From: Octopus vulgaris | Lineage: Eukaryota | Length of the DNA: 64,000 nt | Direction: 5' to 3' | Assembly: GCA_951406725.2 (NCBI GenBank) | Contig: OX597833.1 | Coordinates: 930,001 to 994,000, forward strand | In this document: in pieces, positions 1,208 through 47,363 of the stretch | Position numbering within the stretch: the stretch's first letter is position 1 | How the letters are laid out: every line of letters begins with the position of its first letter | Made by a program: the position numbers and the translations under genes | Notes under the pieces: generated by a model | Told to the model about the DNA's origin: nothing | The model's database searches: none | Seen by the model: the letters and a program-made list of their open reading frames with translations, nothing else

Positions 1208-1328
1208 AGGCTGAAGTGTAGGAATACATCATCACTATCATCAGCATAACCGACATCAACAGCTTGCGAGGCAGACGAGAGGAACCCCAAGACCCCTCGG
1301 CAACCGTAAGATAACCAGACGACATCAT
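1208..1328 (-). CDS. Gene C exon 1 (signal peptide) of the two-Ig paralog family; remainder lies left of the window
   Basis: Translates as MMSSGYLTVAEGSWGSSRLPRKLLMSVMLMIVMMYSYTSA plus 1 nt, then a gtaagt donor (phase 1). Clearly homologous to exon 1 of genes A and B. Intron-1 sequence at 85-160 also aligns with B ~26570-26635 and A ~45365-45430. Confidence 0.85.
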
Positions 1329-10506: not shown

Positions 10507-10599
10507 GTATATGTATATATAAAGTTAATCCAAGCATGAAGACGTGTATATATGGTGGACTCATCCGTTGGTTTCAACGTACGAGGCCCCGGCAACGTA

Positions 10600-12390: not shown

Positions 12391-12499
<109 letters not shown>

Positions 12500-12693
12500 T
12501 ACGACAGGCTTCTTTCAGTTTCCGTCTACCAAATCCACTCACAAGGCATTGGTCGGTCCGGGGCTATAGCAGAATACACTTGCCCAAGATGCCACGCAGT
12601 GGGACTGAACCCAGAACCATGTAGTTGGTTAGCAAGCTACTTATCACACTCCTGCGCCTATATATATGTATATTTATATATATGTATGTATGC

Positions 12694-12836
<143 letters not shown>

Positions 12837-12929
12837 TATATATATGTATGTATATATATGTGTATATATGGTGGACTCACCCGTTGGTTTCAACATACGA
12901 AGCTCCGGTAACGTAATCTTTCTTTGTCA

Positions 12930-16010: not shown

Positions 16011-16265
16011 TTGGGTTGGTACATAAATATTGCGGCATTTATTTTTTCCAACAAATTTTTTTCGACAAAAACAATAACAATATTTACCAAAAACATTTGA
16101 AAATGACGGTCTAACTGTCTGCCAAGCAAATGGGAAGCAGTAATTGAAGTAGATGGTGAATATGCTCCGGAATATTCATTTAAAGATGTTTTTGTTACAT
16201 GTTGTTATTGTTTTTGTTGAATAAAATTTGTAGAAAAATGCCGCAATAATTATGCACCGACGTAA
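16011..16265 (+). mobile_element. Mariner-derived MITE in the 3' UTR of gene B
   Basis: Inverted termini TTGGGTTGGTACATAAATATTGCGGCATTT / AAAATGCCGCAATAATTATGCACCGACGTAA with TA flanks, an internal transposase C-terminal remnant (LPSKWEAVIEVDGEY), and absence from the paralogous site in A (~35918). Confidence 0.8.
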
Positions 16266-17165
16266 TATTAGTTGTTTACGTTACTACAGTTAGTATTTCT
16301 ACAGTTAGTGACATACAAGGATTATAATTAACATGTTTAATTAGTATCTAAAAATATATAAAGTGTATATATAATCTTGGACAGGAGAAGTTCGATGTTT
16401 GTTGTACCCCGTCACTAACATCACTGGTCGATACCAAATCCAAATAACGTCCATTGGAATCTGTAAATAAGAAAATGAATGCGTAAGGAATACTTTGAAT
16501 GGAATTTAGATAACTTTTGACCAGTGCTGTCGGTCGGTAGGTGGATCGTAAAGGTAAGAGGGATAAACCCCAAAGAAGCGAACGATAAAAGAAAAATTAA
16601 AGAACACACCAACAGGGGAAGTAACCAACATTTCGACTGGGACGAGACTCGAGTGTGAGAGATGCAACACTATAGAATAAATAAATATACAGACACGTTG
16701 AAGGCTGCCATTTTGTGTGTGATGTATAAAACAAAGGGAAACCACTCGATCCTTGGAAACGGTCTTTTCTGTGGATTTAACGGGGCCATCATTCAGGCAG
16801 AGAGTGGTGTTTTTGTATAACTGGCTTATTTGATATACTAAATGGTATCCATAGCACTCTACAGGCCGATCTCTGTGACATTTGGTCTAAATAACTGTTG
16901 GTAGACACCTTTACAGAATAGAGCTCTTGGGTCCCACGGAGAGGGAGCTCCACAGCTGTAGGGGTTAACTGTACCAAGAAGCTTGAACCACCCCCACCAC
17001 CACACCCATGTATATGAAGAGGGCGAAAACGAGTTTGCGGAACGATAAGGAGGGGTAGGAAGGAGATGAATGAGAGGAAAATTAAGAAGCAAAAAGAAAA
17101 CGGAAAAGAAAGTAATTTATCTTTACAAACCTTCGTTATCGTCTTTGTGCAAAAAAAAGATGACA

Positions 17166-17260
17166 CTATCGAGAAATTGCAGCAACCAAAAACAGAAGAA
17201 TGAGATTGACGACCAAAATCCATTTAGTGTACAACATACCAGAAGCAGCGCTGGGAAAAC
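17166..17260 (-). CDS. Gene B exon 4: GPI-anchor-signal-like C-terminus
   Basis: Acceptor ttttgccttacag, then (G)FPSAASGMLYTKWILVVNLILLFLVAAISR*: small residues, spacer and terminal hydrophobic run; homologous to A exon 4. Confidence 0.8.
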
Positions 17261-20205: not shown

Positions 20206-20993
20206 TATTTACGGATAAATTCATATCTGCATATGTACATATATGCTTTGATGTTTATACGTACGCTACATTTTCATATACTAGTTTAAAATATCAGTCT
20301 GCTGACGCGCAACCCTCTGTGATATCAAACCTAACGAGAAACTATTCTGTTATGCAAACTAAGAAAGCACGTGTTACTTTCAATGTGCTCTCATTGGTTG
20401 GAAGGATTACCAAAGAGCAATTACGGCAGATGTGCTAAATATACAGGTGTACAGGAATTACAAGTAGGGAAGGTTGTTATGAAATACCTTCAGAAACCGT
20501 TTAGTTGACTTCTGCTTCTAGAAGCCATTTAACCAGCTAAATATTAGACCGCAAAAGAAAAAAGAAGAAACCTAATTAGTGTTGAGATTTCTATTAAATC
20601 AATGACCTAATTAGTGTTGAAGTTCGAGGCGATGTATCTTAGAAAACGCTTTGAATATTTATGGGCCCGGGAACAGGGAGTGGAGATGATGCAAGTGCAC
20701 CCCCTAGAATTTTTGTGGAGTGCAGAACCAAAATTTGCAGCCCTACTTATTTTCCTCGAATTTAGAAAACGGTAAATAAGAGATGTGTAAAAAGTAGCTT
20801 GAAGTTAGGTTCCTTCTCAAAGAACAAAACAAAAATAACAAAAAAGAAGACACTGTTTGTAAATATTTTTGGACCTGGGTTTGCATCCCCTAAGCAAATT
20901 TCATTCCCGAGCCAGTGTATTCAACCGTAAAATCTAAGGAATGCAACAATGTTTTCTGTCTGCAAGAAGACAAGCAGCAGGGAATACTTTTAA

Positions 20994-21213
20994 CCCTTTA
21001 GTGTTCAGATTACTCTGTTAAATGTAATACTTTTTCACTCAAATTGTTTTGAATTAATTATGCATTATCTCATAGCTTTGAGGTTTCAATGATGTGATTG
21101 TATATTTTTTGAATGTCAATGTAGGTTAGGTTTGAGGGGCTAGATATTCCCAGTTTGATTATAAAACAGGTAGAATATTTGGGCCAGATATGGCCGGTTT
21201 AAACACTAAAGGG
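20994..21213. mobile_element. piggyBac-type MITE in intron 3 of gene B
   Basis: TIR CCCTTTAGTGTT, TTAA duplicated at 20990-3 and 21214-7; gene A has a single TTAA at the paralogous empty site (~38305). Confidence 0.9.
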
Positions 21214-21326
21214 TTAAATATTTTTGTTAAAGGATCACAACAGGAGACCCGTAACAATGGTCTTCGTATGAGGACATAGAAAAGCTTTATACAGTGAACA
21301 ATGAAACACAAAGAATATTTACTTAC

Positions 21327-21647
21327 CCATGTGTGGTTGACTGACTACTTTGGTACGTGTCTCTTGAAATACTGTACAGGCAATGGTTGTAGGATTAGCG
21401 GAGTGATCGTGGCCCAAATGGTGATGATAAGATGAAGTTACGTTAGCATAGCATGTGTCCGAACCCCAAACATTCACTTTGTCCCATTTCTCGCTCGTCA
21501 TTTGAAAACCGTGCATTACTTTCCAGTGAAAGACGACTTCATTTTGAGAAGGTAATGCAACATGTGCCGTACAGTTGAATACATCCACGTGTTTCATCGC
21601 AGCATCATGGTTGTGGACGTGCTCCAGACTGTGAAGAGAAGATTTCA
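21327..21647 (-). CDS. Gene B exon 3: His-rich C2-like Ig domain
   Basis: ttttattttcag acceptor and gtaagt donor, 321 nt. Motifs FNCTA...FHWK...CYANVTSS...TIACTV give the Ig B-strand Cys, C-strand Trp and F-strand Cys plus one extra Cys. Confidence 0.88.
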
Positions 21648-21829
21648 CTGAAAATAAAACAGACATTAGAATAATAGAATCAAAATAACGAACTGGATGT
21701 AGGCGCTGAAACAAATGAAAGCGTTGATACAAAACTAGAATGCTGAACCCTGAGGTGTCTCTGGTAACTTTTAGGGCTGATGTTTCCAGAAAAAGCAATG
21801 CTAGAGGAAGGTGAAGTAGAGTCTATATA

Positions 21830-24060: not shown

Positions 24061-24387
24061 CTTTTAGCGACGCTGGACTGGAAACATGTGTGTCATTTAC
24101 ACTACATCTGTATGAGGTTGCATCATGGCAATTGAGGTTCCTTTTCCAGCAGTCAACCATACTATGCCCCCATTTTGTTTTAGGGTTGCTACAGTAGAAA
24201 TCCTTCGCGTTTGTTACGATATACTTCCCTGTATGATTGTCGTGTTCCATTTTCGAAACGACGGTTCCATTCTGGTGGAGAGAGAATGAATGGAAATCTG
24301 TCGCATTGAAATGGCAGGAAATGCGCATTTCTGTTGAGTCTCCAATAGCGAAACCATGGGCGGGTGAGAGGGTTATTTCGACCTCTG
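24061..24387 (-). CDS. Gene B exon 2: V-like Ig domain
   Basis: ctcttccag acceptor (CAGCAG tandem) and gtcagt donor, 327 nt. Reads AEVEITLSPAHGFAIG...ISC...FSLHQNG...FYC...VDCWKRNLNCHDATSYRCS, containing the DxxxYxC V-type motif. Confidence 0.88.
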
Positions 24388-24456
24388 CTGGAAGAGAAAG
24401 CGGAAGAGGGGGGGAAAAAAGTTTATTAGGAATATATGTTGTGAAACGTGAGATAT

Positions 24457-25132
24457 AGAAGAAGAAGAAGGAGGGCGAGGAGAAGAAGAAGAAGAAGAAG
24501 AAGAAGAAGAAGGAGAAGAAGAAGAAGAAGAAGAAGAAGAAGAAGAAGAAGAAGAAGAAGAAGAAGAAGAAGAAGGAGAAGAAGAAAGAGAAGGCAGAGG
24601 AGGAGAAGAAGAAGAAGAAGAAGGAGGAGGAGGAGGAGAAGAAGAAGAAGAAAGAGAAGAAAGAGAAGGAGAGGAGAAGAAGAAGAAGAAGAAGTAGAAG
24701 GAGGAGGAGGAGGAGGAGGAGGAGGAGAAAAAGAAAAAGAAGAAGAAGAGGCAGTAGAAGCAGCTGAAGAAGGAGAAGACGAAGGAGAAGAAAAAGAAGG
24801 GGAATAAGGAAGGCGAGGAGAAGAAGGAGGAGGAGGAGAAGAAGCAGAAGAAGAAGAAGCAGAAGAAGAATAAGAAGAAGCAGAAGAAGAAGAAGAAGAA
24901 GAAGAAGAAGAAGAAGAAGAAGAAGAAGGAGGAAGAGAAGAAGAAGGAGGAAGAGAAGAAGAAGCAGAAGCAGCTGAAGAGGAAGGAGAAGGAGAAGAAG
25001 AAGAAGAAGGAAAAGAAGAGGAAGAAAAAGAAGAGAAGAAGGAGATGAAGGAGATGAAGGAGAAGAAGGAGAAAAAGAAGTAGAAGAAAGAGAAGAAAGA
25101 GAAATTACAAAGTAGGAAGAGAAAGAGAAGAA
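24457..25132. repeat. (GAA/GGA)n purine tract next to the exon-2 acceptor of gene B
   Basis: Seen directly; counterpart in gene A at 42771-43230. Confidence 0.95.
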
Positions 25133-25596
25133 AACTTAGGAGATATTTCAACTAATGTCCTTCTCATCTTGCTTGTTATAATCACAATGCTTCGACTGTT
25201 GTTTACCCCGGACATCTTCGGGTCCCTCTCCAATTAAATAATAAGCTCGGGGATAGATCATCCTCATTCAGTTGTCCACTTGGGCTAAGGATTTTCTCTT
25301 TATTAATTAATCCTTTTGTTAATTTTGATGCTTCCTTTTTACCCCCGAAATGTTATATAAGCTTGACTAACTCAGTAATTGAACGCACACCGACTAATTA
25401 CAGTAGTACACTTAACTGTTGATCATTATTCCCTTGTGCTTCAGGTAAATAAGATAGGGTGAAATACTGAGCTACAAAATCTGTTTTTATGGCTGTAGTT
25501 TTGTTAACTTTTCTTCTTTATTAAAATAAAAGACTGCCCTAAGGTGTCCATCGCTATGCTAGGCCTACTGAGGAGCTTACGTAAACTCTGAGTATG

Positions 25597-26201
25597 TACC
25601 TATTTCTTTACTACCCACAAGGGGCTAAACACAGAGGGAACAAACAAGGACAGACAAACGGATTAAATCGATTACATAGACCCCAGTGCGTAACTGGTAC
25701 TTATTTAATCGACCTCGAAAGGATGAAAGGCAAAGTCGACCTCGGCGGAATTTGAACTCAGAACGTAGCGGCAGACGAAATACCTATTTCTTTACTACCC
25801 ACAAGGGGCTAAACACAGAGGGGACAAACAAGGACAGACAAACGGATTAAATCGATTACATAGACCCCAGTGCGTAACTGGTACTTATTTAATCGACCTC
25901 GAAAGGATGAAAGGCAAAGTCGACCTCGGCGAAATTTGAACTCAGAACGTAGCGGCAGACGAAATACCTATTTCTTTACTACCCACAAGGGGCTAAACAC
26001 AGAGGGGACAAACAAGGACAGACAAACGGATTAAATCGATTACATAGACACCAGTGCGTAACTGGTACTTATTTAATCGACCTCGAAAGGATGAAAGGCA
26101 AAGTCGACCTCGGCGAAATTTGAACTCAGAACGTAACGTCAGACGAAATACCACAAAGCATTTCGCCCGTCGTGCTAACGTTTCTGCCAGCTCGCCGCCT
26201 T
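25597..26201 (-). mobile_element. Family-B SINE trimer (184-bp period)
   Basis: TACCTATTTCTTTACTACCC at 25597, 25781 and 25965, with a single head ending at 26201. Confidence 0.9.
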
Positions 26202-26772
26202 AGCCAGACATGTTATAGAAGCTTAACTAACACGTCCATTGACCTCACACCCACAAGCTATAATACTACCTCTTACTGTTAATGCTTTGTATTCGTTATT
26301 CCATTATACTGTGGATCAATGAGACAGAAGACATAGTTGTGTTGCTATTGTTATTTTTTCTTCAATTTCTTCTTTTTCAATGAAAGACTACCATAAGGTG
26401 TCCATCGCTATGCTAGGCCTACTGAGGAGCTTCTGTGAACTCTGAGTATGTACCGATTCTTTCTGTCGTCTGGTCTTCCAGTCTTGTTCCCTATGCATTG
26501 GTGTCTTCCATCTTCCTGCACCAAATGACTAACAATTCCCTATGCAGAGGGAGGTGATTACACATCAACCTGGTACAGAATACTAGCATTAATCTTACGC
26601 ACCAGTCGATTTTCACTAGTTTGGGGGCCGCTGGTTGCAAACATTCTGTTCTATTTTCGGGAGTTGCTAATAACAAGGGGTCACATATTGATACTAACGT
26701 TGAAACAAATAAGCTACCCACATCCACACCATATATTCTTCTACCGATCCATTCTTGTTGCTTTTTTCTTGG

Positions 26773-26819
<47 letters not shown>

Positions 26820-27494
26820 ATTATATACACCTATATGCACACACACACACACATGTACTTACACATATAACTATGTATATTCATGCATAAACTCATACAT
26901 AGGTGTACGTGTGTGTCTATATACATACACACATTAATACATATGCATATATTATACTCTTTACTCTTTACTCTTTTACTTGTTTCAGTCATTTGACTGC
27001 GGCCATGCTGGAGCACCGCCTTTAATAGAGCAACACGTTAGGCCGGGACAACGCAATCACAACCCCCCCCCGCACATTTCAGAATCGATGAAATGTGAAA
27101 CCGTTGAGGGTCCTTTTTGATTGAACGGGTAAGCGTCTATTATCATGCGTTCGTTTCAGATGTTGAGACGTTTGAGTGAGACCGTGTAAAGAAAGAGGTC
27201 TGAGGCATGGACAAGCAAAATCCTCTGAGTTGCACCCCAACAAGGCTCTCGCCTTCGTGATAGTCTTATAGGTGAGTACTCTCTTCCCAGTTTTGCCCTC
27301 CGTAGACTTTCCTTCTGTTTCCAAAGACGAGTTCCAAAATGAAACATTATTGATTTTAGACATTAGGAAAAAAGTCAAAGAACCCATCATTTTCTCCTAC
27401 TCCTAAAATTTCTCTTCTGACGATTTTGCTACTAAAAATTCTTCTCATCTCTTCTCTTTGATTCTGTTTAAACGTATATACTTGGGCGCGACAT

Positions 27495-28022
27495 ATCGAC
27501 CCCCGTACGCAACTGGTACTTAATTTATCGACCCCGAAAGGATGAAAGGCAAAGTCGACCTGGGCGGAATTAGAACTCAGAACGTAGCGGCAGACGAAAT
27601 ACCTATTTCTTTTATTACCCACAAGGGGCTAAACATAGAGGGGACAAACAAGGACAGACATAGGTATTAAGTCGATTACATCGACCCCAGTGCGGAACTG
27701 GTACTTAATTTATCGACCCCGAAAGGATGAAAGGCAAAGTCGACCTGGGCGGAATTAGAACTCAGAACGTAGCGGCAGACGAAATACCTATTTCTTTACT
27801 ACCCACAAGGGGCTAAACATAGAGGGGACAAACAAGGACAGACATAGGTATTAAGTCGATTACATCGACCCCAGTGCGGAACTGGTACTTAATTTATCGA
27901 TCCCGAAAGGATGAAAGGCAAAGTCGACCTGGGTGGAATTAGAACTCAGAACGTAACGGCAGACGAAATACCGCTAAGCATTTCGACCGGTGTGCTAACG
28001 ATTCTGCCATCTCGCCGCCTTA
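27495..28022 (-). mobile_element. Family-B SINE multimer
   Basis: Same 184-bp body repeated about 2.5 times with one head. Confidence 0.85.
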
Positions 28023-28219
28023 GACCTATCTATAGTTGGCTTCCATCTAATCAAAATTCTTAAACGACTAGGAATGATTTAAGCGGGTAATAGATATTAT
28101 GTTTTGTTGGTCAAAGGAGTCACGTACTATATTGTAATGTCTAGTCGAGAGGTTTTCTGTGATGGTCACTGTGCGGTTTGTTTAGGTCCTGTTAAGATTA
28201 AATTTGTCTTACGAGAAAG

Positions 28220-28298
<79 letters not shown>

Positions 28299-28347
28299 GA
28301 GAGAAAAGGGAAGAGCTAAGAAAATAAAGTTACCGTCCTTTACTTAC

Positions 28348-28465
28348 CAGCTGAAGTATATGAATACATCATCGCTATCATCATCATCGACATCAGCAGT
28401 TTGGCAGGCAAACCCGAAGATCTCCAAGACCCTTCACCAACATTAATATAACCACGAGACATCAT
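28348..28465 (-). CDS. Gene B exon 1 (signal peptide)
   Basis: MMSRGYINVGEGSWRSSGLPAKLLMSMMMIAMMYSYTSA plus G|gtaagt; hydrophobic core and T-S-A cleavage motif. Confidence 0.88.
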
Positions 28466-28530
28466 GCTTGGTCCGAATAAAATATAAATGCTTGAGCACT
28501 TTCTATTAATTCTTCGTAACCAATTAGCTT

Positions 28531-28707
28531 ATTCGTGATATAATGAAGCTAATTAATTAACAGATATGTACACATCCGAAACCGACAGGAATATCAGAGC
28601 GAATGATATGAAGTGAAGTTGTTCTGTTTGTAACAACTAACACAAACAACTCACAACTAAAATGCGATGATCACGTGATATCTGGTTTTATTCGTTTAGA
28701 ATCATTC
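28531..28707 (-). promoter_or_regulatory. Conserved proximal promoter block of gene B
   Basis: TCACGTGA at 28671-28678 and AAGTGAA at 28611-28617; aligns with C and A. Confidence 0.6.
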
Positions 28708-28752
28708 TGCTACAAATTAAATTCCCCCACTCCTATACTTCCAAATTTATAC

Positions 28753-28789
<37 letters not shown>

Positions 28790-29076
28790 TATATATATGT
28801 GTGTGTGTGTATGTGTGTGACTTATAATGAATGTAAGAGTGAGGAGTAGAAGCGTGAAAGAAACAACAAATGATGAAGATAAAGGAATTTTTATTGACAG
28901 TGAATTGCCCTGGTTTCGTTAATCAATCAGATGAAAAGAAGGGCCCCCGTTCCGAGAGAAAGCATTTAAGATTAAGAAGAGAAATCATTAAAGATAATGA
29001 GTGAGAAAAAGGTTGTGTGGACTTTAAGAGAGAATCAAAGAGAGTGAGAGTGAGGAAGGGAAAGCTAGAGAGATAG

Positions 29077-29152
<76 letters not shown>

Positions 29153-29376
29153 TAAGGTACAGGGTGTACCGAGGATGGGTTAGAGGTAGAGAGAAACAGG
29201 GTGGAAGAGAAACCAGAGTTTTGGTTGGATAAAGTTAAGTAAAAGCGTGTGAGTCATAATTGTTTTCAATTTAGGTACAATGCCTGACGTTTTGAGGGAG
29301 GGGGCAAATCGAGTACATCGGCCCCTAGTACTCAGGTGGTACTTATTTTGTGGGTGTTGCATTTCAGATTATGTAA

Positions 29377-29660
29377 AAAGAACATAACGAGTACATATGA
29401 TGGAAAACCCGTGGTATTTTTATGCACATCAAGAAATAATACTTGAGGATAAAGCCAGTCCAATAGCAGGGTATATAATATAATACCTTAATTAGCCCTT
29501 AATTGAGTTAAAATTAGCATTAGATAACTCAAGCAGGGACTAATTAAGCTAGTATATTTTATACCCTGCTATTGTACTGGTTTTATTCTCAAGTATTATT
29601 TCTTGATGTGTATATAAATACCACGAGTTTTCTATCATAAGTACTCGCTGTGTTCTTGTT
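29377..29660. repeat. ~285-bp imperfect palindrome (foldback/MITE-like) upstream of gene B
   Basis: 29380-29480 is the reverse complement of 29553-29657, and the centre (CTTAATTAG...CTAATTAAG) is also inverted. Confidence 0.8.
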
Positions 29661-29767
29661 GTATTATATATGCATATGTATGTATCTATATATGTATATG
29701 TATGTATATATGTATATGTATGTATGTATGCATGTATATATATATATATATATTTATATACATATAT

Positions 29768-29828
<61 letters not shown>

Positions 29829-30128
29829 ATTAATTTATAAAAATATGGTAAAGTAAAAAAATTCGCTTTACCACACACCGAACTTTTCAGAAATAGCAGC
29901 CAAAAATTTGGCTATTTCTTCAACTGCAAATAAAAGTCTCCAGACAATGCATACTCAGAAAATAACTCACATAGGTATAAGGGAAAAACAATGAAAAATC
30001 ACATCCATATACGATACCCGAGGACAGTCTGTTTCTGGATTTGTGGGTAAAACGCCACTTTTCCTTCATCAGCTCAGAGATTTCTTCTGATTTAGATTTG
30101 AAAATACTAAGAATCTAACATACCCGTC

Positions 30129-30208
<80 letters not shown>

Positions 30209-30209
30209 A

Positions 30210-30266
<57 letters not shown>

Positions 30267-30280
30267 GCATACATACATAC

Positions 30281-33142
30281 ATGGCTCTCACAGAAACGCA
30301 TCTTGAACCCGATATAGGTGATGCAGAAATACACATGCCGCAATATGCAGTCATACGCACAGATAGAAAAGGGAGGAGCCATGGTGGAGTTGCAATGTAC
30401 ATCCGAGATGACCTCACGCCCCAGGTCCTGTTGTCATATTCAAACTCAGTGTGTGAAACTCAAATTGTACACATAAGACAACTGAATATCGTCATATGTA
30501 CTACATATCGCCCACCAGATGCCCCAAAACACTCAGGCATGTTTGAAGATTGCCTAACAAAAATAGGAGAAGTCCTCACCAACCTTGAACAACACAACAG
30601 TGTATTCTTCATGGGTGACTTTAACCTCCCCAATGTGGAATGGCCTGGGGGGCAGATGCTTCCAGGGATGACACACCATCAGCAGGCACAGGTGGAGTCC
30701 CTGCTCCATCTCACAAATGCCTCTTTCATGGAGCAAATAGTTCTGCAACCAACAAGGGCAGATAATATACTGGATCTCTGCTTCACAAACAATATGGATA
30801 TTATCCATAATGTTAATGTGATGCCGACAATGATCTCGGATCACAACATAATAGAGCTGTCTATGTATGGAACAAAAGCCCCCGTGGACACACAACCTAT
30901 ACGAAGCATCCACCATCTCTCCAACTTAAACTTTCATAAAGCCAACTGGAAGTTGATTGAGAAAGAGATCCTCAAACAAGATTGGCCTGAATGTCTCTCC
31001 ACACCGGACATAAACATGAAACACAAACATTTCATGTCCATAATACAAGCCATATGTGACAAATATGTCCCAGTGTGCAGGGCCAGCACACACAAGAACA
31101 AAAACAGGATCCCTAGAGAAAGGAGGATTCTTATGAGACGACGGACAAGGATTGCGAACCGCCTGAGCAAGCACACCAAAAGTGGTGAGAAGTCTCGGCT
31201 CGAAAGAATGCTAATGGAAACTGAGAAAAGTCTACATCAGTCCCATGAAAAGGAGAGAGCAGATAAAGAAGCTTGGGTAATAGAAAATATAAAATCAAAC
31301 CCTAAAGCTTTCTTTAAGTTTGCCAAAGAGACAGCCACAGTGCACCAGAGAATAGGACCTCTCTTCCAAAAAGATGGATCTCTCACAGGAAATCCCACGA
31401 GGATAAGTGAAATACTGAACGAACAGTTCCAAAGTGTGTTCACTACACCTCTAGGACACAGGCAAGTAAACAACCCAGAAGAATTCTTTGCCACAAAATC
31501 AGCTGCTGGACCTGATGGATTCCCAGCGATCCTTCTCAAATCGTGCAAACGAGCCCTTGCAAAACCGCTACAGCTTCTTTTTCAGAGCTTTCTTGCAAGT
31601 GGTAAGCTCCCAGTCAAATTGAAAGAGGGGGTAATATGCCCTATCCATAAGGGAGGTAGCAGAGCAGATGCTAAAAATAATAGGCCTATCTCTCTGACCT
31701 CACACATCAGCAAAGTCATGGAACGAATAGTCCGTAAGAAACTAATCATGTTCCTTGAAGAAAATGACTTGCTGTCTGACACCCAGCATGGATTTCGACC
31801 AGGTAGAGGCTGCCTAACACAGCTCCTGCAACACTATGACTGGGTGTTGAAACAGTTACTAAATGGCTCAAATGTGGATGTAATATATCTCGACTTTGCA
31901 AAAGCCTTTGATAAAGTTGACCATGGTATGATCTGTCACAAACTGCGTGGTCTCGACATAGGCGGAAAACTTGGAGAGTGGCTGCACAACTTCCTAAAAG
32001 ACAGAAAACAAGCAGTTGTGAGCAATGGAGCCACCTCCAAGGAAACGCAAATAACAAGCGGTGTCCCACAGGGCACTGTCTTGGGGCCACTGATGTTCAT
32101 AGTGGCCCTTTCAGACATGCCTTCAGTTGCTACGATGACCACCCTTGCTAGCTATGCAGATGACACAAAAGTCTCCCACGCAATACAAAACCCTGAAAAT
32201 ATTGCGCATCTGCAACATGAGCTGGACACAATATACAGGTGGGCTGAGGACAACAACATGCAGTTTAATGCAGGTAAGTTCCAGGCCCTGCGCTACTGGC
32301 ACACAAAGGTAAACGACGTGAAGACTGGATACACTGGCCCAGGAAGAATTGCAATCCCTGAGTCAAAATCAGTGCGTGACCTGGGCATTGACATGAGCAA
32401 TGATGCATCTTTCCAAGTGCATATTGCTAATCTGGTGATAAAATGCAGACGGCTAGCTGGATGGATTCTCCGAACTTTCAGAACAAGAGAGAAGGAGACA
32501 CTGATGGTCCTATGGAAGACATTCGTCCTCAGCCGCTTGGACTACTGCTCCCAACTGTGGTCACCACACAATATAAAACTAACAGCAGAACTCGAAGCAA
32601 TTCAGAGAAGCTACACAAAGAAAATCGTCTCAATGCAAAATATCAGCTACTGGGAAAGATTGAAGGTATTAAACCTCTTCTCCCTAGAGCGGAGGCGGGA
32701 GAGATATGCGGTGATATACATCTGGAAAATCCTGGAGGGTCTTGTCCCAAACTTTGGCATTCAAAGTTACCCTAACCGCAGAACGGGGCGCCACTGCATG
32801 GTGCCAAGGATTCCAACATCACCATCAAAATACAGGTCCAGATACTGCAACAGCTTGGGTTTCAGAGGACCACAGCTCTTTAACATCCTCCCTAAATGCC
32901 TGAGAGACTTACATGGTGTGGATGTGGGTTTCTTTAAAACTAAACTGGATCTCTTCTTGTTGGGAGTCCCAGATGAACCTACCTCACGACAGGAGACTCG
33001 GATGCAGGCAGCAGCATCGAACTCCCTTGTTGATCAAGTGCCACGTATCAGAGGTGGATTCACAAATTAGTGTAGCTCATTCAGCGGTGGTGGCCCAGCA
33101 TGGCCGCGGCCTTCGGGCTAAAACATTTTAAAGGATTTAAGG

Positions 33143-33145
<3 letters not shown>
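30281..33145 (+). mobile_element. CR1-group LINE with a 929-codon open ORF2 (APE endonuclease plus RT), 5'-truncated
   Basis: ORF 30281-33070 contains TETHL, GGVAMY, YRPP, MGDFN, ILDL, SDHN (APE) and [33 protein letters not shown] (RT). The 3' stem-loop tail and (GGATTTAA) repeats follow. The first 26 codons of the track ORF are microsatellite. Confidence 0.95.
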
Positions 33146-33202
<57 letters not shown>

Positions 33203-33232
33203 TTACATATAAGAGAGAGGGTACGCACTCCG

Positions 33233-33268
<36 letters not shown>

Positions 33269-33636
33269 ATAAAAAAATACAAACTGGGACAAGAACGCAA
33301 AACATTTAGAAGACGATACAAAAGACACGGACAGGACATTCGAAGCCTTCAATCTTCAGTCAAGAACCGGATCATCCTCGCAATTTCGGCTGATTAATCT
33401 TGAGATTGCTCCAATCTGGCCAGCCCCAAGGAAAAACTAAGCTAAGCGCATTAGATTCCTTGGAAGGAAGCTTCACACTTACAGGGAAAAATTCAATTTA
33501 GTATTAAATCAAATTTCACAGTATAAATATATAAAATATAATTTAGAGATAAAACCACTATCATGCATTATGTCTATCACTGTTTGGTAGTGGTTTTATC
33601 TCTAATTTATATTTTATATATATGTGTATATATATA

Positions 33637-34112
33637 TGATGACCGTCCACTCGTGACCGAGGAAGACCATTGCTGACCTTCAGGAACATTTTGCATTTGC
33701 GGCTCCGTTGGTGACTAATGAGCCCTGCTCTTGACAAGCATACACGACTGCAAACATTGCAGACCAAGCTTTCCCCATTCACTATACGAGCCGTGCTCTT
33801 TCGCGCAGCTCGCTTAAGTTCTTCATGCTGGATACGTGCTCTCTCAAAAGTGTCGATCCCCTCCTTAACCTGCTTCCTCCATCTGTGGCGATGACAGGCA
33901 TTGTTCTCCCAGTCAGTGTCCTGCATATCAAAAGCCTTTAACGAGGACTTGACACAGTCCTTAAATCGCAGCCTTGGTTTCTGCCAGAGTCTCCTTCCAT
34001 TCACAAGTTCTCCATAGAGCATCTGCTTAGGAATCCTAAGGAATTCTAATAAGGTGTCCAGTCCAACGCAACCGGTGCTTGTGTACCATCGCCTCAATAC
34101 TCAAGATATCAG

Positions 34113-34116
<4 letters not shown>
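33637..34116 (-). mobile_element. RTE-like LINE 3' end embedded in (TA)n
   Basis: IPKQMLYGEL...KPRLRFKD...CNVCSRVCLSRAGLISHQ; near-identical to 53980-54462 in inverted orientation. Confidence 0.88.
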
Positions 34117-34159
<43 letters not shown>

Positions 34160-34273
34160 CAGCAAAAACAATTAAGATTCAAAAGAATTCGAATGAATTC
34201 AAATGAATATGATACTTAACTTAGATGCACCAAGATTCTTTATGGTATTAACCATAAAATTACGTGGGATGAT

Positions 34274-34576
34274 TATAACCAAGAAGAAAGCAACAAGAAT
34301 GGATCGGTAGATTAGTACAATTGTTTCATACTAAAAACATTTTATTTCAAGCTGCAAATATTACAGCAAATATAATGTCAAGTATTCATCAGCTAAATCA
34401 CATATAGGTTATCCATATATACACTCTCTAAGCATATATGGAAAACCAATATGTGATTTAGCTGATGAATACTTGACATTATATTTGCTGTAATATTTGC
34501 AGCTTGAAATAAAATGTTTTTAGTATGAAACAATTGTACTAATCTACCGATCCATTCTTGTTGCTTTTTTCTTGGT

Positions 34577-34580
<4 letters not shown>
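34274..34580. repeat. ~300-bp near-perfect palindrome (MITE/foldback)
   Basis: The 34276-34410 arm is the reverse complement of the 34445-34578 arm. Confidence 0.9.
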
Positions 34581-34636
<56 letters not shown>

Positions 34637-34689
34637 TTAAAATTACTAAGTCTCTCTAAAAGAGAACACGGCAGCGTTCCTGGAAAATA

Positions 34690-34863
34690 ATAGTTATCGC
34701 CATACTAATATGGCATTCTTATAAAAATAAGAATAAAGCTGTTCGAAGGTTATATGGATACAGTTTGTGTATCAAATAGCTAACTTAAGGCGATGGCCTC
34801 ATGGAGCTAATAAGCGGACAGCTTTATTCTTATTTTTATAAGAATGCCATATTTGTATGGCGA

Positions 34864-34870
<7 letters not shown>
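34690..34870. repeat. ~180-bp foldback element with ~55-bp inverted arms
   Basis: ATAGTTATCGCCATACTAATATGGCATTCTTATAAAAATAAGAATAAAGCTGT and its reverse complement; a partial copy lies at 41468-41500. Confidence 0.8.
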
Positions 34871-34917
<47 letters not shown>

Positions 34918-35067
34918 ATTATATACACCTATATGCACACACACGCACACACACACACACACACACATGTACTTACACATATAACTATGTATATTCATGC
35001 ATAAACTCATACATAGGTGTACGTGTGTGTCTATATACATACACACATTAATACATATGCATATGTT

Positions 35068-35483
35068 ATACTCTTTACTCTTTACTCTTTTACTTGTTTC
35101 AGTCATTTGACTGCGGCCATGCTGGAGCACCGCCTTTAATCGAGCAACTCGACCCCGGGACTTATTCTTTTGTAAGCCCAGTACTTATTCTATCGGTCTC
35201 TTTTGCCGAACCGCTAAGTAACGGGGACATAAACACACCAGTATCGGTTGTCAAGCAATTCTAGGGGGACAAACACAGACGCACAAACACACACACGCAT
35301 AAATATATATACATATATACGACGTGCTTCTTTCAGTTTCCGTCTACCAAATCCACTCACGAGGTTTTGGTCGGCCCGAGGCTATAGCAGAAGACAGTTG
35401 CCCAAGGTGCCACGCAGTGGGACTGAACCCGGAACCATGTGGTTGGTAAACAAGCTACTTACCACACAGCTACTCCTGCGCCT
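35068..35483 (-). mobile_element. Family-A SINE downstream of gene A
   Basis: Consensus match. Confidence 0.9.
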
Positions 35484-35671
35484 ATTATGCAAATATCCAT
35501 TGCAAATGTTTCCATTATTAACTGTTTGTACAAATGTGAATCTTATTAAATTAATACACTTCGGTGCACAAAACTAATTATTGCAGTAAATAAGTGGAAT
35601 TTCAATGAATTCTTTTTCCCTAAACATATTCGTTAAAGAAATCTCCAAAAGACAGACACATTTTCAATTGC

Positions 35672-35677
35672 TTTATT
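35672..35677 (-). terminator. Candidate polyadenylation signal AATAAA of gene A
   Basis: Same position in the conserved terminal block as gene B's signal at 15758-15763. Confidence 0.5.
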
Positions 35678-37091
35678 TATCATAATTCCACACGGGTTTT
35701 ACATATAAAATTCGTATATAAATCACTTAATAAATTTCATGAAACGGTTAAGTTTTATCTTTTAAACCATTATAATTTTAATGTATTTCTTAACCAAGTT
35801 TATTTCTACCCCTTTTGTTAACTTAACAAATGGTTATTTTAACCTTATGAAACTATGTGAACATGTTCTGATGGTGTGTATATAGTATTGTAATTAAAAC
35901 TGTAATTGTTAATTTTATTAGGTGTTTATGTTATTACAGTTACTATTACTAAAGTTAGTGATTTACAAAGATTACGGTTACTGATTGATTAGTATTAAAA
36001 GATTAATAATAATTTTATATGATTTGTAACGGGAGAAGTTCCATGAAAGTTGTCTCCGTCACTAAAATTGCCGGTCGATACCAAATGCAGTTAATGTCAA
36101 CAGGAATCTGTAAATAAATAAGTAAATAAATGAATGTGTGAGGAATCCTTTGAATGGGGTTTAAGCAAATTTTGATGGTGCCACTTACTCCGGTGATGTC
36201 GGTAGGCGGAACCTAAAGGTAAGAGACAAACATCAAAGAAGCAAACGATAAAAGAAAAATCGCAGGAGAACACACGAACAGGGGAAGTAACCAGCATTTC
36301 GACTGGGACGAGACTCGAGTGTGAGAGAAGCAATACTATAGAATAAATAAATATACAGAGACGTATTGATATGTATTTAGTCTCAATGTAAAACTAGGCC
36401 CACGAGGGTATTTTGTGTTGCTGGAAATGCGTATAGGCTTCTGGTGTGTTTGTGAGAACTGAGAGACTTGATCGAAGAGTTTGGGGAATAAACTGGCGCA
36501 CTCTGGGTACCCAGACGTATTAGTAAAATTAATTCGAACAAAGGCAAAAAGTGAATCGGATGAAAGGGCGATGTTTATGTGTAGACCCCAATATTGCATT
36601 TCTGGAGATGCACACGAAATTCCATTTGTTTCTGATGATCTTAGGGTGGTGAGGATTATATCTTGCAAATTGACGTCTTCCCTCTGTGTCTCAGAATCAA
36701 TGCCACCACCCACATCGGCGTGCTGGTCACCTTTAAGCCCTCGGCGGGTGGATTGCCCCTCAGAAAGCCCCGCATGTGTCTTGGCATGACTGAATTCTCG
36801 TCAACATTGTTCATGTGTCACAGCAGTTGCTGGTCGTGAATAGTCATAAATATGTGACCACCCAGCAGGACTCATGCATCTGGAGAGTCGTTGAGAGAGA
36901 AAGAGGGGGAGAAAGAAGAAATAGGGAGAGGTGGAGGGAAAATATGGAGAGAGAGAGAGAGAAAGAGAGAGACAGAGGAGAGAGAAAGAGAAAGAGTAAA
37001 GGAGAGAAATAGAGAGTGAGAGAGAGAGGGGGGAGAGAGACAGAGGGAGGGAAGAGTGTGAAAGAGAGGAGGAGAGAGACAGAGGGAGGGA

Positions 37092-37125
<34 letters not shown>

Positions 37126-37674
37126 TGAGAGAGAGAGGTGGACCTATTGGTCGCTTCCTATTATTACAGACGCGTTGAAGGCTGCCATTTTGTGTGTGAT
37201 GTATAAAACAAAGGGAAACCCCTGGATCCCTGGAAACGGTCTTTTCTCTGGATTTAACGAGGCCATCATTCAGGCAGAGAGTGGTGTCTTTGTATAACTG
37301 GCTTATTTGATATATTAAATGGTATCCATATCACTCTACAGGCCGATCTCTGTGACATTTGGTCTAAATAACTGTTGGTAGACACCTTTACAGAATGGAG
37401 TTCTTGGGTCCAACGGAGAGGGAGCTTCACAGCTGTAGGGGTTAACTGTACCAAGAAGCTTGTACCTCTTCAAGATGGATTTTATTGCAGCGCGCAACAC
37501 CCCCCTCCACCATACCCATGTATATGAAGAGGGCGAAAATGAGTTTGCGGAACGATGAGGAGGGGTAGGAAGGAGATGAACGAGAGGAAAATTAAGAAGC
37601 AGAAAGAAAACGGAAAAGAAAGAAATTTATCTTTACAAACCTTCGTTATCGTCTTTGTGCAAAAAAGAATGACA

Positions 37675-37769
37675 CTAACAAGAAATTGCAGCAGCCAAAA
37701 GCAGAAGAATGAGATTAACGGCCAAAATCCATTTGGAGTATAAAATACCAGAAGGAGCACTGTTAAAAT
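37675..37769 (-). CDS. Gene A exon 4: GPI-anchor-signal-like C-terminus
   Basis: tttatcttacag acceptor, then (D)FNSAPSGILYSKWILAVNLILLLLAAAISC*; candidate omega site at N-S-A. Confidence 0.82.
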
Positions 37770-38417
37770 CTGTAAGATAAAGTATAGGCGTGTCAAGGAA
37801 AATATTTACGGATAAATTCATATGCTTTGATGTTTATACGTACGCTGTATTTTCATATACTAGTTTAAAATATCAGTCTGCTGACGCGCAATTCTCTGTG
37901 ATATCAAACCTAACGAGAAACTATTCTGTTATGCAAACTAAGAAAGCACGTGTTACTTTCAAAGTGCTCTCATTGGTTGGAAGAGCAATTACGGCAGATG
38001 TGCTACGTATACAAATTTACAGGAATAACAAGTGGGGAAGGTTGTTATGAAATACCTTCAGAAACCGTTTAGTTGACTTCTGCTTCTAGAAGCCATTTCA
38101 CCAGCTAAATATTAGACCGAAAAAGAAAAAAAAAGAAACCTAATTAGTGTTGAGATTTCTATTAAATCAATGACCTAATTAGTGTTGAAGTTTGAGGCGA
38201 AGCATCTTAGAAAACGGTTTGAATATTTAAACATTCAACCGTAAAAATCTAAGGAATGCAACAATGTTTTCTGTCTGCAAGAAGACAAGCAGCAGGGGAT
38301 ACTTTTAAATATTTTTGTTAAAGGATCACAACAGGAGACCTTTAACAATGGTCTTCGTATGAGGACATAGAAAAGCTTTATACAGTGAACAATGAAACAC
38401 AAAGAATATTTACTTAC

Positions 38418-38738
38418 CCACACGTGGTTGATTGACTACTATGGCACGTGTCTCTTGAAATACTGTACAGGAAATGACTGTAGGATTAATGGAGTGATCG
38501 TGGCCCAAATGGTGATGATAAGATGAAGTTACGTTAGCATAACATTTATCCGAACCCCAAACATTCACTTTGTCCCATTTCTCGCTCGTCATTTGAAAAC
38601 CGTGCATTACTTTCCAGTGAAAGACGACTTCACTTGCAGTAGGTACTGCTGCACGTGCCGTACAGTTGAATACATCCGCGTGTTTCATTGCAGCAGCATG
38701 GTTGTGGACGTGCTCCAGACTGTGAAGAGAAGATTTCA
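38418..38738 (-). CDS. Gene A exon 3: His-rich C2-like Ig domain
   Basis: 321 nt with canonical splice sites; VKSSLHSLEHVHNH...FNCTA...FHWK...CYANVTSSYHHHLGHDHS...ISCTV. Confidence 0.88.
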
Positions 38739-38894
38739 CTGAAAATAAAATAGACGTTAGAATAATAGAATCAAAATAACGAACTGGATGTAGGCACAGA
38801 AACAAATGAAAGCGTTGATACAAAACTAGAATGCTGAACACTGCTGAAACTAAGTTCTGGTTATAAGTTTTAGGGCCTGTACAATGGATATCTC

Positions 38895-38927
<33 letters not shown>

Positions 38928-39124
38928 TTAGGGAGGTTCACAGCTGTATGGGTGAACCGTATCAAGAAGTTTGCAGAGGATCAACTCACTTATTTTATAG
39001 ATAAAGTAGTGCATGAGGAAGTGCACGATGTGCATGGAGACTATACCTACATCAACACAGAAGCGGGTGCACATAAGCACACTCACATACACCCACATAT
39101 ATATGTATATATATATATATATAT

Positions 39125-39181
<57 letters not shown>

Positions 39182-39256
39182 AAAAACTGTCCGATGAACG
39201 GCAACGGGAAACCCAGAGTAACAGGTTTTGTTGAATTTTCTGGTGCTTTAAATAAA

Positions 39257-39292
<36 letters not shown>

Positions 39293-39331
39293 TCATATTT
39301 GTATGTATATATCTATATCTATATATATATG

Positions 39332-39362
<31 letters not shown>

Positions 39363-39379
39363 GTATATATATATGTATG

Positions 39380-39410
<31 letters not shown>

Positions 39411-39453
39411 GTATATATATATGTATATATATATATATATGTATATATATATG

Positions 39454-39542
<89 letters not shown>

Positions 39543-39559
39543 ATATACTTACTTTTTTC

Positions 39560-39771
39560 TCTTTACTTGTTTCAGTCAGTTTGACTGCGGCCATGCTGGA
39601 GCACCGCCTTTTAGTCGAGCAAATCGACCCCGGAACTTATTCTTTGTAAGCCCAGTACTTATTCTATCGAACTCTTTTGCCGAACCGCTAAGTGACTGAG
39701 ACGTAAACACACCAGCGTCGGTTGTCAAGCAATGCTAGAGGGACAAACACAGACACACAAACATATACACA

Positions 39772-39816
<45 letters not shown>

Positions 39817-39949
39817 GACAGGCTTCTTTCAGTTTCCGTCTACCAAATCCACTCACAAGGCTTTGGTCGGCCCGAGGCTATAGCAGTGGGACTGAACCCG
39901 GAACCATGTGGTTGGTTAGCAAGTTACTTACCACACAGCCACTCCTGCG

Positions 39950-39952
<3 letters not shown>
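39560..39952 (-). mobile_element. Family-A SINE in intron 2 of gene A
   Basis: Consensus match with a small internal deletion. Confidence 0.85.
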
Positions 39953-40016
<64 letters not shown>

Positions 40017-40297
40017 ATGATTGTATATGTATATGTATATGTATATACTTATATATTTCGCTAACCGGGCGAAATGCTTAGCAGTATTTCGTCTGCCGCT
40101 ACGTTCTGAGTTCAAATTCCGTCGACTTAATTCCTTTGTCTGTCCTTGTTTGTCCCCTCTATGTTTAGCCTCTTGTGTACAATAAGGAAATATATATATA
40201 CATACATACATACACACATACAATGAAGGCTTTGAATGACTCGTTTGTTTTTTTGTTCGTCCCTTCGTGTATTTCACGTTATTTATTTATGTAAAGG

Positions 40298-40374
<77 letters not shown>

Positions 40375-41026
40375 AAATAAACAACAAAATAATCACCCCA
40401 TTTTGAATTATATGGATAATACCATAGTATATTCTGGTGCCTTGAACTTAAGTTACATATTCATCTGAATCTAAATTTTACTGAACTTATATACAAAAGA
40501 CGAAAAAATTAAATTTTCTACCACGTAGATGTGAGGAAACGCTCAGATATCGAGCTTTAACTGCGAGCGTTTTAAAAACGTTATTCAGAGCGGGTTATCT
40601 TCCCTTGGACAAAAGTATAAGAACCCCTTACAAACCCGAACCCTCCTAACCAGCAAATGGAGACTTCCAGTTCTCTGTTAGATCCCGGTACCTGAGCGTT
40701 TCCCGTTTCCAAATGTCCGCATGGTAGAAAGTTGTGGCATTCATGGTTACGAAACCATTGGTCTCTCTATGACCAGAATTTAACTTTCCGTTTTAAGAAT
40801 TACTGCTTCTTTTCTGATATATGCTTTATTGAAATGCTCGAAATGAGGAGTAGATAGACAGCAGACAACTGATGAAGGATTTGTTCTCTGTGTTCACTTA
40901 TCCTGTTCCCCATTTTTTCTCTCGCTGTTTGCGAACTTAACTTGCTTGTTTTCGTATTTCATGTTGTTTACACAGTTGTTTACAAAATTCACGGAACGAT
41001 GTCAAGCGTTGCTGACAGGCTGACCG

Positions 41027-41052
41027 CAATAATAATAATAATGATAATAATA

Positions 41053-41083
<31 letters not shown>

Positions 41084-41096
41084 TAATAATAGTAAC

Positions 41097-41152
<56 letters not shown>

Positions 41153-41299
41153 TCATAATAATAATAATAATAATAATAACAATAATAATAATAATAATAA
41201 TAACAGCAACAACAACAATAACAATAATAATAATAATAATAATAATAATATTAATAATAATAATAATAATAATAGTAATAATAATAATAACGATAATGC

Positions 41300-41332
<33 letters not shown>

Positions 41333-41376
41333 TAATAATAATAATAATAATAACAACAATAATAATAATAATAATA

Positions 41377-41438
<62 letters not shown>

Positions 41439-41525
41439 AATAATAATAATAATAATAATAATTAATTGTTATCGCCATATTAATATGGCATTCTTATATA
41501 GAGACTTAGTAATTTTAATATTTCT

Positions 41526-41607
<82 letters not shown>

Positions 41608-42194
41608 GCCCTGATGCAGTACCAGGCAGTGGCTCTCATGGCTTCTCATCTTAACTGATTGGAAGTGCTATCATGTACATTGTTTTGTCTTGGTATAAAA
41701 GATGGGCTACAGCAAATATTCTGCTCAATACCACAGATTTGCTTGTCAGTTGTTTGACCTTAACCAGTTGAGCATGCCCCTTAGTGGTTGACGATATGTG
41801 CATCTCTGATCACGAGCAGAAGTAGAGGGGGAGCATCATAGCCATGTGTTGAGAGGGATTCTTTGGGGTTTGAATAATTCATCTCTGGAAACATGGGTGT
41901 TTCGTTCAAATTCCTTAAATAACTTTTATTCAGGGACCTTTTGAGCGGGATGGGTTACTCGATCTGAAGAAAATTCTAACAGGGCCTCACTTGGAAGGTC
42001 ATGTGCTGTTTATCTTGATATGAGATCACCATGTTACGCACATATGGTTGTGATGCATGTGCCTGATGTACCCTTATCAGACGGGTAGTCATGATGGGTA
42101 TACTGGGCTTCGTATATTTTACCCCAGTGTCACTTTGATGGAATGCACTGATCTCTCACTCAATAATAATAATAATGATGATGATGATGATTAC

Positions 42195-42236
<42 letters not shown>

Positions 42237-42250
42237 AATGATAATGATGA
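41027..42250. repeat. (AAT)n/(GAT)n array with an embedded ~550-bp dispersed element (41606-42161)
   Basis: Microsatellite seen directly. The end of the embedded element (TAGTCATGATGGGTATA...ACCCCAGTGT...CACTCAATAAT) recurs at 23503-23580 in gene B. Confidence 0.8.
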
Positions 42251-42345
42251 TTTCTGAAACACAACACTACAAATTTTGTGAAGGTTTCAATTTTAAATGT
42301 AATAGTGTTGAACAGTGGAAATTATGACGAAGATGGTGAACTTAC

Positions 42346-42675
42346 CTTTTAGAACCATTGAAGCGGAAACATCTTTGTCTGATAAAGAACATCTGTATGA
42401 TGTCGCATCCTTGCAATTGAGGTTCCTTTTGAGGCAGTTAACCACGCCACTATTCTGATCAGGTCTTGGAATCATGCAGTCGAAATCTTTCTTTTTTATT
42501 TCAGCTACAAAGTCTCTAGAAGCTTTGGCGCGTACCATCTTCACTACAGTAGTTCCATTTTGCAACAGAATGAACGATTTAAAATCCTTCGTGCTATATT
42601 GACATGTAATATTCATAATAGTTGGCTTTCCGACAGCAAAACCATCAGCAGGCTCTAGTTGTACGTTTGGGAAAA
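42346..42675 (-). CDS. Gene A exon 2: V-like Ig domain
   Basis: ttttttctcgtatag acceptor and gtaagt donor, 330 nt; VFPNVQLEPADGFAVG...ITC...FILLQNG...FDC...VNCLKRNLNCKDATSYRCS. Confidence 0.88.
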
Positions 42676-42770
42676 CTATACGAGAAAAAAGAAAATGGAA
42701 GGAGGAAAATTTATCAGGCATATATGTTGATCAAGGTAAGTCAGTTAGTCATTAAGGAAAGAAGTAAGCC

Positions 42771-47242: not shown

Positions 47243-47363
47243 CGGCCGAAGTGCCAGAGAACATCATCACTGTCATCACCATCATCGACATCAGCAGTTG
47301 GCTAGGCAGACGGGAAGAACGCCATGTCAGCTCACCGAGAACAACGTAACCACGAGACATCAT
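47243..47363 (-). CDS. Gene A exon 1 (signal peptide)
   Basis: MMSRGYVVLGELTWRSSRLPSQLLMSMMVMTVMMFSGTSA plus G|gtaagt. Confidence 0.88.

Follow-up and report, generated by a model that had tools for sequence, protein, structure and literature searches.

The stretch analyzed here (the window) comprises 64,000 nucleotides of the Octopus vulgaris genome, positions 930,001 to 994,000 of contig OX597833.1 (C20:930001-994000), and contains three related genes arranged head to tail on the (-) strand, namely gene A (47363 to approximately 35900), gene B (28465 to approximately 16250) and the first exon of gene C. The coding sequence of both A and B is split into four exons joined in phase 1, with AG/GT ends, which encode, in order, a signal-like segment, a domain of 109 codons in A and 108 in B, a domain of 106 codons and a 30-codon tail in which small residues are followed by a hydrophobic run up to the stop codon. 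An earlier note on this sequence described the distal, V-type immunoglobulin (Ig) domain of exon 2 as highly divergent between A and B and the proximal, C-type domain of exon 3 as conserved, and took this to reflect diversification of ligand specificity. That interpretation is partly supported, being wrong for the pair A/B and partly right for the gene family to which they belong.

In gene A, exon 1 (coding part 47243..47363) is signal-peptide-like, extends from the ATG to a phase-1 GT donor and shares its start with the annotated O. vulgaris protein P0001. Exon 2 (42346..42675) encodes a V-type Ig domain with five Cys and no His, and a 255-nt contig of public run X1 is identical to it over 42426-42676. 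It is followed by exon 3 (38418..38738; C-type Ig, three Cys, 12 His), with DNA 93% identical to exon 3 of gene B, and by the coding part of exon 4 (37675..37769), which encodes a predicted glycosylphosphatidylinositol (GPI) signal. The corresponding exons of gene B are a signal-peptide-like exon 1 (coding 28348..28465), exon 2 (24061..24387; V-type Ig, five Cys, nine His), exon 3 (21327..21647; C-type Ig, three Cys, 14 His) and exon 4 (17131..17260), which holds a predicted GPI signal (coding 17166-17260) and the start of the 3' untranslated region (UTR); a further exon 5 (16250..16460), the far end of which is not fixed, continues the 3' UTR. Splicing of gene B is documented by contigs of public runs, taken as RNA by guess and not by record, that cross junctions 1-2 (X1, X2 and X9), 2-3 (X1 and X9) and 3-4 (a B-type junction in X9) and one 3'-UTR junction, from exon 4 to exon 5 (X9). 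The exon 2 acceptor of gene B is a tandem (CAG CAG, 24385-24390), and the O. sinensis isoforms show a one-residue difference. Contig depth over exon 2 was in the thousands or more for gene B in X1, X2 and X9 and 2.9 for gene A in X1; it was not used as evidence, as gene B had served to choose the runs and genes cannot be ranked by the depth of contigs. The two 30-base ends of one X2 contig match exon 2 of gene A, though X2 cover of that exon was otherwise absent. A conserved block at 37165-37640 was considered as a coding exon and ruled out, since a contig junction places its gene B counterpart in a 3'-UTR intron. P0001 matches exons 1-3 of gene A letter for letter (100% in exon 3), and its public model fuses these to exons 3-4 of gene B, skipping the anchor exon of A; this fusion and the multi-gene fusions P0003 and P0005 are likely annotation errors.

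The identity counts reported earlier were reproduced, at 49 of 108 codons (45%) in exon 2 and 89 of 106 (84%) in exon 3, or 90 of 107 including the split codon. The five Cys and the KRNLNCxDATSYRCS core are common to exon 2 of both genes, and the three segments noted as replaced (in gene A at about 42587-42601, 42491-42535 and 42443-42475 on the (-) strand) are identical at 0/5, 0/15 and 1/11 codons, or 1/31 in total. Nonsynonymous differences affect 91/254 sites in exon 2 versus 20/250 in exon 3 (Fisher p=1e-14), synonymous differences 39/70 versus 5/68 (p=4e-10), and non-coding differences 131/461 positions in the 5' half versus 53/1132 in the 3' half (p=6e-37). Because silent and non-coding sites repeat the contrast seen at replacement sites, the two exons differ by age and not by constraint. 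Synonymous divergence (dS) is 0.98 in exon 2 and 0.08 in exon 3 by counting, and 1.18 and 0.07 by maximum likelihood (ML). The ratio of nonsynonymous to synonymous divergence (dN/dS, or omega) in exon 2 is 0.50 by counting (95% bootstrap interval 0.25-0.85) and 0.48 by ML (p=0.014 against 1), and in exon 3 it is 1.1-1.4. The earlier note had itself named an exon-2 dS equal to the divergence of introns 1 and 2 and a dN/dS well below 1, with the contrast arising from conversion of the 3' half, as what would speak against its reading; values of 0.48-0.50, with exon 3 and its introns alike, largely correspond to that outcome.

Nor does the proximal domain hold up as conserved. Among the 42 genes with both exons, which form 861 pairs, mean identity is 29% for C and 33% for V, only 30% of pairs have a lower identity in V than in C, and the excess of C over V identity in A/B is the largest of all; site models (below) detect selection in the C domain as well. 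An explanation in which exon 2 diverged by ligand selection and exon 3 was held by purifying selection could draw on the three segments, with 1/31 identical codons and an enrichment for family-wide selected sites, and on the saturation that long selection would cause, lowering pairwise omega. We regard it as the least probable of the alternatives, given that exon-3 dN/dS of 1.1-1.4 is not well below 1, that the introns are as similar as exon 3, and that C domains are unconserved family-wide.

The homogenized tract comprises the end of intron 2, exon 3 and the start of intron 3, and occupies 37820..38843 (-) in gene A and 20241..21752 (-) in gene B, where it is broken by B-specific sequence at approximately 20662-21213. 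Its blocks are 92.9% and 94.1% identical between A and B, the best match of each being the other gene, and the introns on either side of exon 3 show 93-98% identity. Masked non-coding divergence (K) within the tract is 0.018-0.090 (intron 2 end and first two intron 3 blocks), compared with 0.28-0.38 for alignable non-coding sequence of the 5' half, an underestimate, since introns 1 and 2 can for the most part no longer be aligned. Approximately 1 kb around exon 3 is thus roughly ten times younger than exon 2. Exon 3 was recently homogenized, silent sites and introns being as similar as the exon itself, and the likely route for exon 3 and its flanking introns is gene conversion, which would have copied them from B into A. 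An assembly artefact was ruled out as the source of the likeness, as 22 of 315 exon-3 bases differ, the introns carry private insertions, and a 258-nt X2 contig equals gene A 38163-38420 with zero differences.

With regard to direction, His counts in the V and C domains are 9/14 in B and 0/12 in A, and at most 4/6 in other members; the excess of gene B relative to the family has a binomial p of 2e-5 for V and 2e-7 for C. As B is His-rich in both domains and A in C only, A would be the recipient of exon 3 from B. The C-domain branch length is 0.20 for A and 0.044 for B. In the C tree, A falls outside B plus the O. sinensis orthologue of B (support 92/72), so the conversion likely predates that split. 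Orthology of A with O. bimaculoides P0017 is compatible with the V domain (approximately unbiased test, p-AU 0.42) and rejected for the C domain (p 2e-5). A parallel discordance of the gene at 2.915 Mb was not significant (p-AU 0.07).

Other exons match other paralogues. Exon 4 of A and of B shares 92-93% identity with gene C and with a paralogue that lies 1.9 Mb off (C20:2.86 Mb), and 88% between A and B; exon 5 (UTR) of gene B is 97% identical to its counterpart in that paralogue, and exon 1 of gene B is 88% identical to that of a second paralogue in the region (C20:2.91 Mb). Since the exons match different paralogues, up to 2 Mb away, the genes are patchworks. The A/B pattern is reversed at C20:1040000-1082000, where four tandem copies approximately 13.6 kb apart have identical V proteins and differing C exons (85-96% identical), one of them frameshifted. 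It is conceivable, although we consider it unlikely, that this patchwork constitutes germline combinatorial recognition, in which approximately 50 genes exchange their exons (signal, V, C, anchor and UTR) through conversion and microbes drive the V surface. If this were true, gene B would be a His-coated offshoot switched by metal or pH, and its C module, grafted onto A, would give a new V domain a new effector base.

The family itself is large. A V profile search gave 51 matches representing 49 V-exon loci, 48 of which lie on one contig in three clusters (12 loci at 0.86-1.10 Mb, five at 2.85-2.95 Mb and 31 at 43.6-44.7 Mb). The 49th is an intronless copy on another contig (G000:C1:165120565; L060:1303-2349) with a 349-codon open frame encoding a transmembrane member, and is likely a retrogene. 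At least three V exons are broken (three of the 49 loci), and two C exons are frameshifted. GPI-like anchor exons were found in A, B and C, two more genes at the 0.86-Mb end and five genes of the 2.9-Mb cluster, and a transmembrane helix with tail in the retrocopy and in the Argonauta homologue P0039.

A protein profile search returned 57 matches, compared with only two, two and six proteins in word-based searches; 18 of the 57, which scored weakly or had extensive multi-Ig architectures (P0036-P0038, P0040, P0042-P0043, P0045-P0048 and P0050-P0057), fell outside the examined set. The homologues looked up (n=20) all belong to three Octopus species or Argonauta, with squid genomes outside the search. 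P0002 (LOC118766833, O. sinensis) is 99% identical to gene B across both domains, and LOC106878948 and LOC106878952 of O. bimaculoides and the Argonauta form P0039 share the same domain layout. All of these homologues are named 'uncharacterized', 'hypothetical' or as generic Ig-domain proteins. Literature searches yielded no paper on the family or its accessions; a skin-mucus proteome supplement (PMC11431876) that may list such proteins lay outside them. The papers reached contain no description of this family as diversified recognition receptors. The conversion tract behind the A/B contrast, the family-wide non-conservation of the C domain and the His-rich gene B are new here.

Selection was assessed with codon models implemented in our own code (GY94, with F3x4 and F61 frequencies), for which none of 40 neutral simulations passed the test. 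Four of 46 V exons with duplicate protein and one identical C exon were left out of the family-wide site models, as were broken V exons, the two frameshifted C exons and two genes for which no C exon was found; two partly broken C exons were retained as their open core. The whole-domain V omega under M0 is 4.3, 4.7, 3.5 and 3.2 in four of seven subfamilies (p 0.0004, 0.012, 0.0004 and 0.0006, uncorrected) and 2.3 and 1.2 (not significant) in two others, and M2a is favored over M1a for V exons in five of seven. For the C exons of six subfamilies, omega is 0.89-1.76, none significantly above 1, and M2a is favored in two. A subfamily of six genes provides an intron control: intron K is 0.004-0.052, V dS is 0-0.049 and matches the introns, and V dN is 0.028-0.175, exceeding intron divergence at least 2.6-fold in all 15 pairs. 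The idea of diversification by ligand thus fails for the pair A/B but finds support in the family, where V dN/dS lies far above 1 in several young subfamilies.

Across the whole family, M0 omega is 1.0 for V and 1.2 for C, M8 exceeds M8a by twice the log-likelihood difference (2dL) of 110 for V and 85 for C, and a class with omega 2.0-2.2 holds 42% of the sites in V and 55% of those in C. We considered whether the family is largely redundant, with high omega reflecting relaxed constraint and conversion a neutral by-product of tandem arrays. An M0 omega of about 1, at least three broken V exons, two frameshifted C exons and the four identical V copies are in keeping with this, but relaxation cannot yield omega of 3-5 or dN several times intron divergence, and the preference for M8 and the near fixation of eight Cys columns are likewise contrary to it, rendering redundancy highly improbable.

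The fold of the family was modelled on P0002 using a 76-row alignment, with a mean predicted local distance difference test score (pLDDT) of 85.9; a single-sequence fold (pLDDT 42.6) was discarded. In the model, the V domain is a sandwich of two sheets, includes C' and C'' strands and can be superposed on antibody V domains (Z 13.4-13.8, 1.7-1.9 Å root-mean-square deviation over 100-104 residues), and the best Foldseek matches are Fab chains spanning both domains. The five V-exon Cys are kept in 46, 46, 46, 45 and 44 of 46 sequences (B-strand 46/46, F-strand 44/46), and the three C-exon Cys in 42, 37 and 42 of 42. The V exons at C20:43975376 and 44247500 are without the F-strand Cys of the canonical Ig disulfide and keep the other four. 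The D-x-x-x-Y-x-C motif is present in the V alignment, and the C-strand Trp of V domains is replaced by Phe (or Ile/Leu) in 42/42 rows; the family V domain is therefore an atypical V-type Ig. None of the four exons of A or B matched a Pfam family at the curated cut-off, and the V and C profiles gave no alignment to each other. The odd number of Cys per domain (five and three) suggests a disulfide between the domains, predicted as Cys125-Cys213 in P0002. By inspection, exons 1 and 4 supply a signal, a small-residue site and a hydrophobic tail without cytoplasmic part, and from these sequence features A and B are predicted to be anchored by GPI.

Judged from the order of strands, the first of the three segments corresponds to the BC loop, the second to the C'-C'' hairpin and the third to the D-E segment, which the extra Cys pair encloses. 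In young subfamilies without A and B, these segments show 4.35 changes per site versus 2.76 elsewhere (p=5e-4), and 16 of their 29 sites are selected family-wide, versus 15 of 76 elsewhere (p=7e-4). The picture of a fixed scaffold with variable loops is upheld to this extent, but selected sites also occupy strand positions, alternating along the B, C, E and F strands. Much of the surface therefore appears to move, a pattern as compatible with evasion of binders as with a search for new ligands.

The earlier note had proposed population polymorphism of exon 2 as a check on its reading, and exon 2 of gene B is not highly polymorphic in the four runs. X1 has no listed difference and X2 one synonymous difference, and X9 and X19 each have two synonymous differences and one Arg-to-Gln codon, Gln being the residue of P0002. 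The contigs of the four runs, which lose rare variants, carry 0, 1, 4 and 4 exon differences in gene B, with one amino-acid change overall. Within this small set of runs, gene B is not hypervariable and is nearly invariant. This bears on a self/non-self or gamete recognition code acting through octopus-octopus interactions, with which clustered two-Ig surface proteins under strong selection would be compatible, as would the weak Izumo-Ig Pfam match of one member (best E 0.0019, 1/76 rows). Allorecognition genes are expected to be hyperpolymorphic, contrary to the near-invariant exon 2 of gene B (none listed in X1, one synonymous in X2), the only gene to which this comparison applies, and such a code seems rather doubtful. 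An octopod expansion of a wiring code for neural or sensory cells, of the Dpr/DIP or Beat kind, would share the two-Ig, anchor-only layout, and language-model look-alikes include arthropod two-Ig clusters (0.92-0.94, a lead only). Wiring codes tend to be conserved, and an omega that reaches or exceeds 1, together with the fast turnover of genes and the broken copies, makes this very unlikely.

Among known systems, Hydractinia Alr also consists of clustered invertebrate Ig-fold surface genes with a variable distal domain. Alr genes show extreme allelic polymorphism of that domain, unlike gene B, which is not hyperpolymorphic in the four runs; A and B also differ from Alr in being without a transmembrane helix and cytoplasmic tail. 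Gastropod FREPs and molluscan variable Ig receptors resemble the octopus family as expanded Ig-domain families with diversified Ig exons. The octopus proteins differ in being predicted to be cell-anchored, and no Pfam family of the fibrinogen or lectin type, a FREP feature, was present in the 76 rows, A and B ending in a hydrophobic tail. CEACAMs mix GPI and transmembrane members; in the octopus family, the anchor exons found are mostly GPI-like, with one transmembrane lineage. The CEACAM/PSG N domain lacks an intradomain disulfide, unlike the octopus V domain with its five nearly fixed Cys. The octopus C domains are also selected, another difference from CEACAM. Among PDB profile matches, CEA was best (E 6e-4), with CD22 (9e-4), LRIG1 (9e-4) and Fc receptors level. 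In PMC8860441, primate CEACAMs are described as subject to selection and to gene conversion between paralogues, and the octopus family resembles CEACAM/PSG in its clustered Ig surface genes, selected N-terminal V domain and exon-scale conversion between paralogues. The converted part differs, being mainly the N domain in CEACAM (PMC8860441) and the C exon in the octopus pair. By analogy, the octopus family appears to work like CEACAM/PSG, and membership in that family is unsupported.

The window contains several further features. Exon 1 of gene C lies at 1208..1328 (-); the V exon (C20:927942), C exon (919063) and anchor exon (about 917700) of this gene fall beyond the left edge of the window. 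Between A and B, a 906-codon open frame on the (+) strand (30281-32999) resembles, judging by its motifs, an endonuclease/reverse transcriptase of a long interspersed nuclear element (LINE), and decayed relatives of this frame occur at about 2800-3380, 50450-51700 and 60870-61450. Intron 3 of gene B carries a 111-bp tandem array (17813-19269) with a gene-strand frame open for 485 codons, which seems to sit within a decayed transposon. A local duplication of approximately 2 kb, with copies 93-98% identical, lies between B and C at 10544-14476.

We favor, with a probability of about 0.6, the explanation that A and B belong, as old members, to an octopod two-Ig family of approximately 50 genes with predicted GPI anchors, that their exon 3 and its flanking introns were recently homogenized, likely through conversion of A by B, and that the proteins likely serve as CEACAM-like receptors or decoys for microbes. 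The family would form an array of surface Ig proteins that evolves by birth and death and is reshuffled through conversion, in which external binders, likely microbes, drive change of the V surface; the exposed surface would be bound by the selecting partner, a microbe or parasite. Gene B, the protein of which is about 11% histidine, may have left this arms race, with its 23 histidines serving metal or pH-dependent binding. Several results weigh against this explanation. For gene B itself there is no indication of ongoing diversification, tests of a separate omega for the branch of A or of B were not significant, and one subfamily has a V omega of 0.59, below 1. V omega is significantly higher than C omega in only one of seven groups and C higher than V in one; pooling six subfamilies gave 1.37 for V versus 1.10 for C (p=0.25). 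A family-wide omega near 1 would equally be expected if most surface sites were weakly constrained. Among the four significant subfamilies, one contains the retrocopy and a gene without a found C exon, and the site models were applied to recombining paralogues with no breakpoint correction inside exons. Composition and branch length are the grounds for the direction of conversion, and unequal crossing-over could produce a similar chimera.

An identity gap between the V and C domains of paralogues can be a footprint of conversion and not a signal of selection. With dN/dS of 3-5 in several branches, approximately 50 surface Ig genes are candidates for how octopuses meet microbes, and this octopod family would then have converged on the strategy of the CEACAMs.

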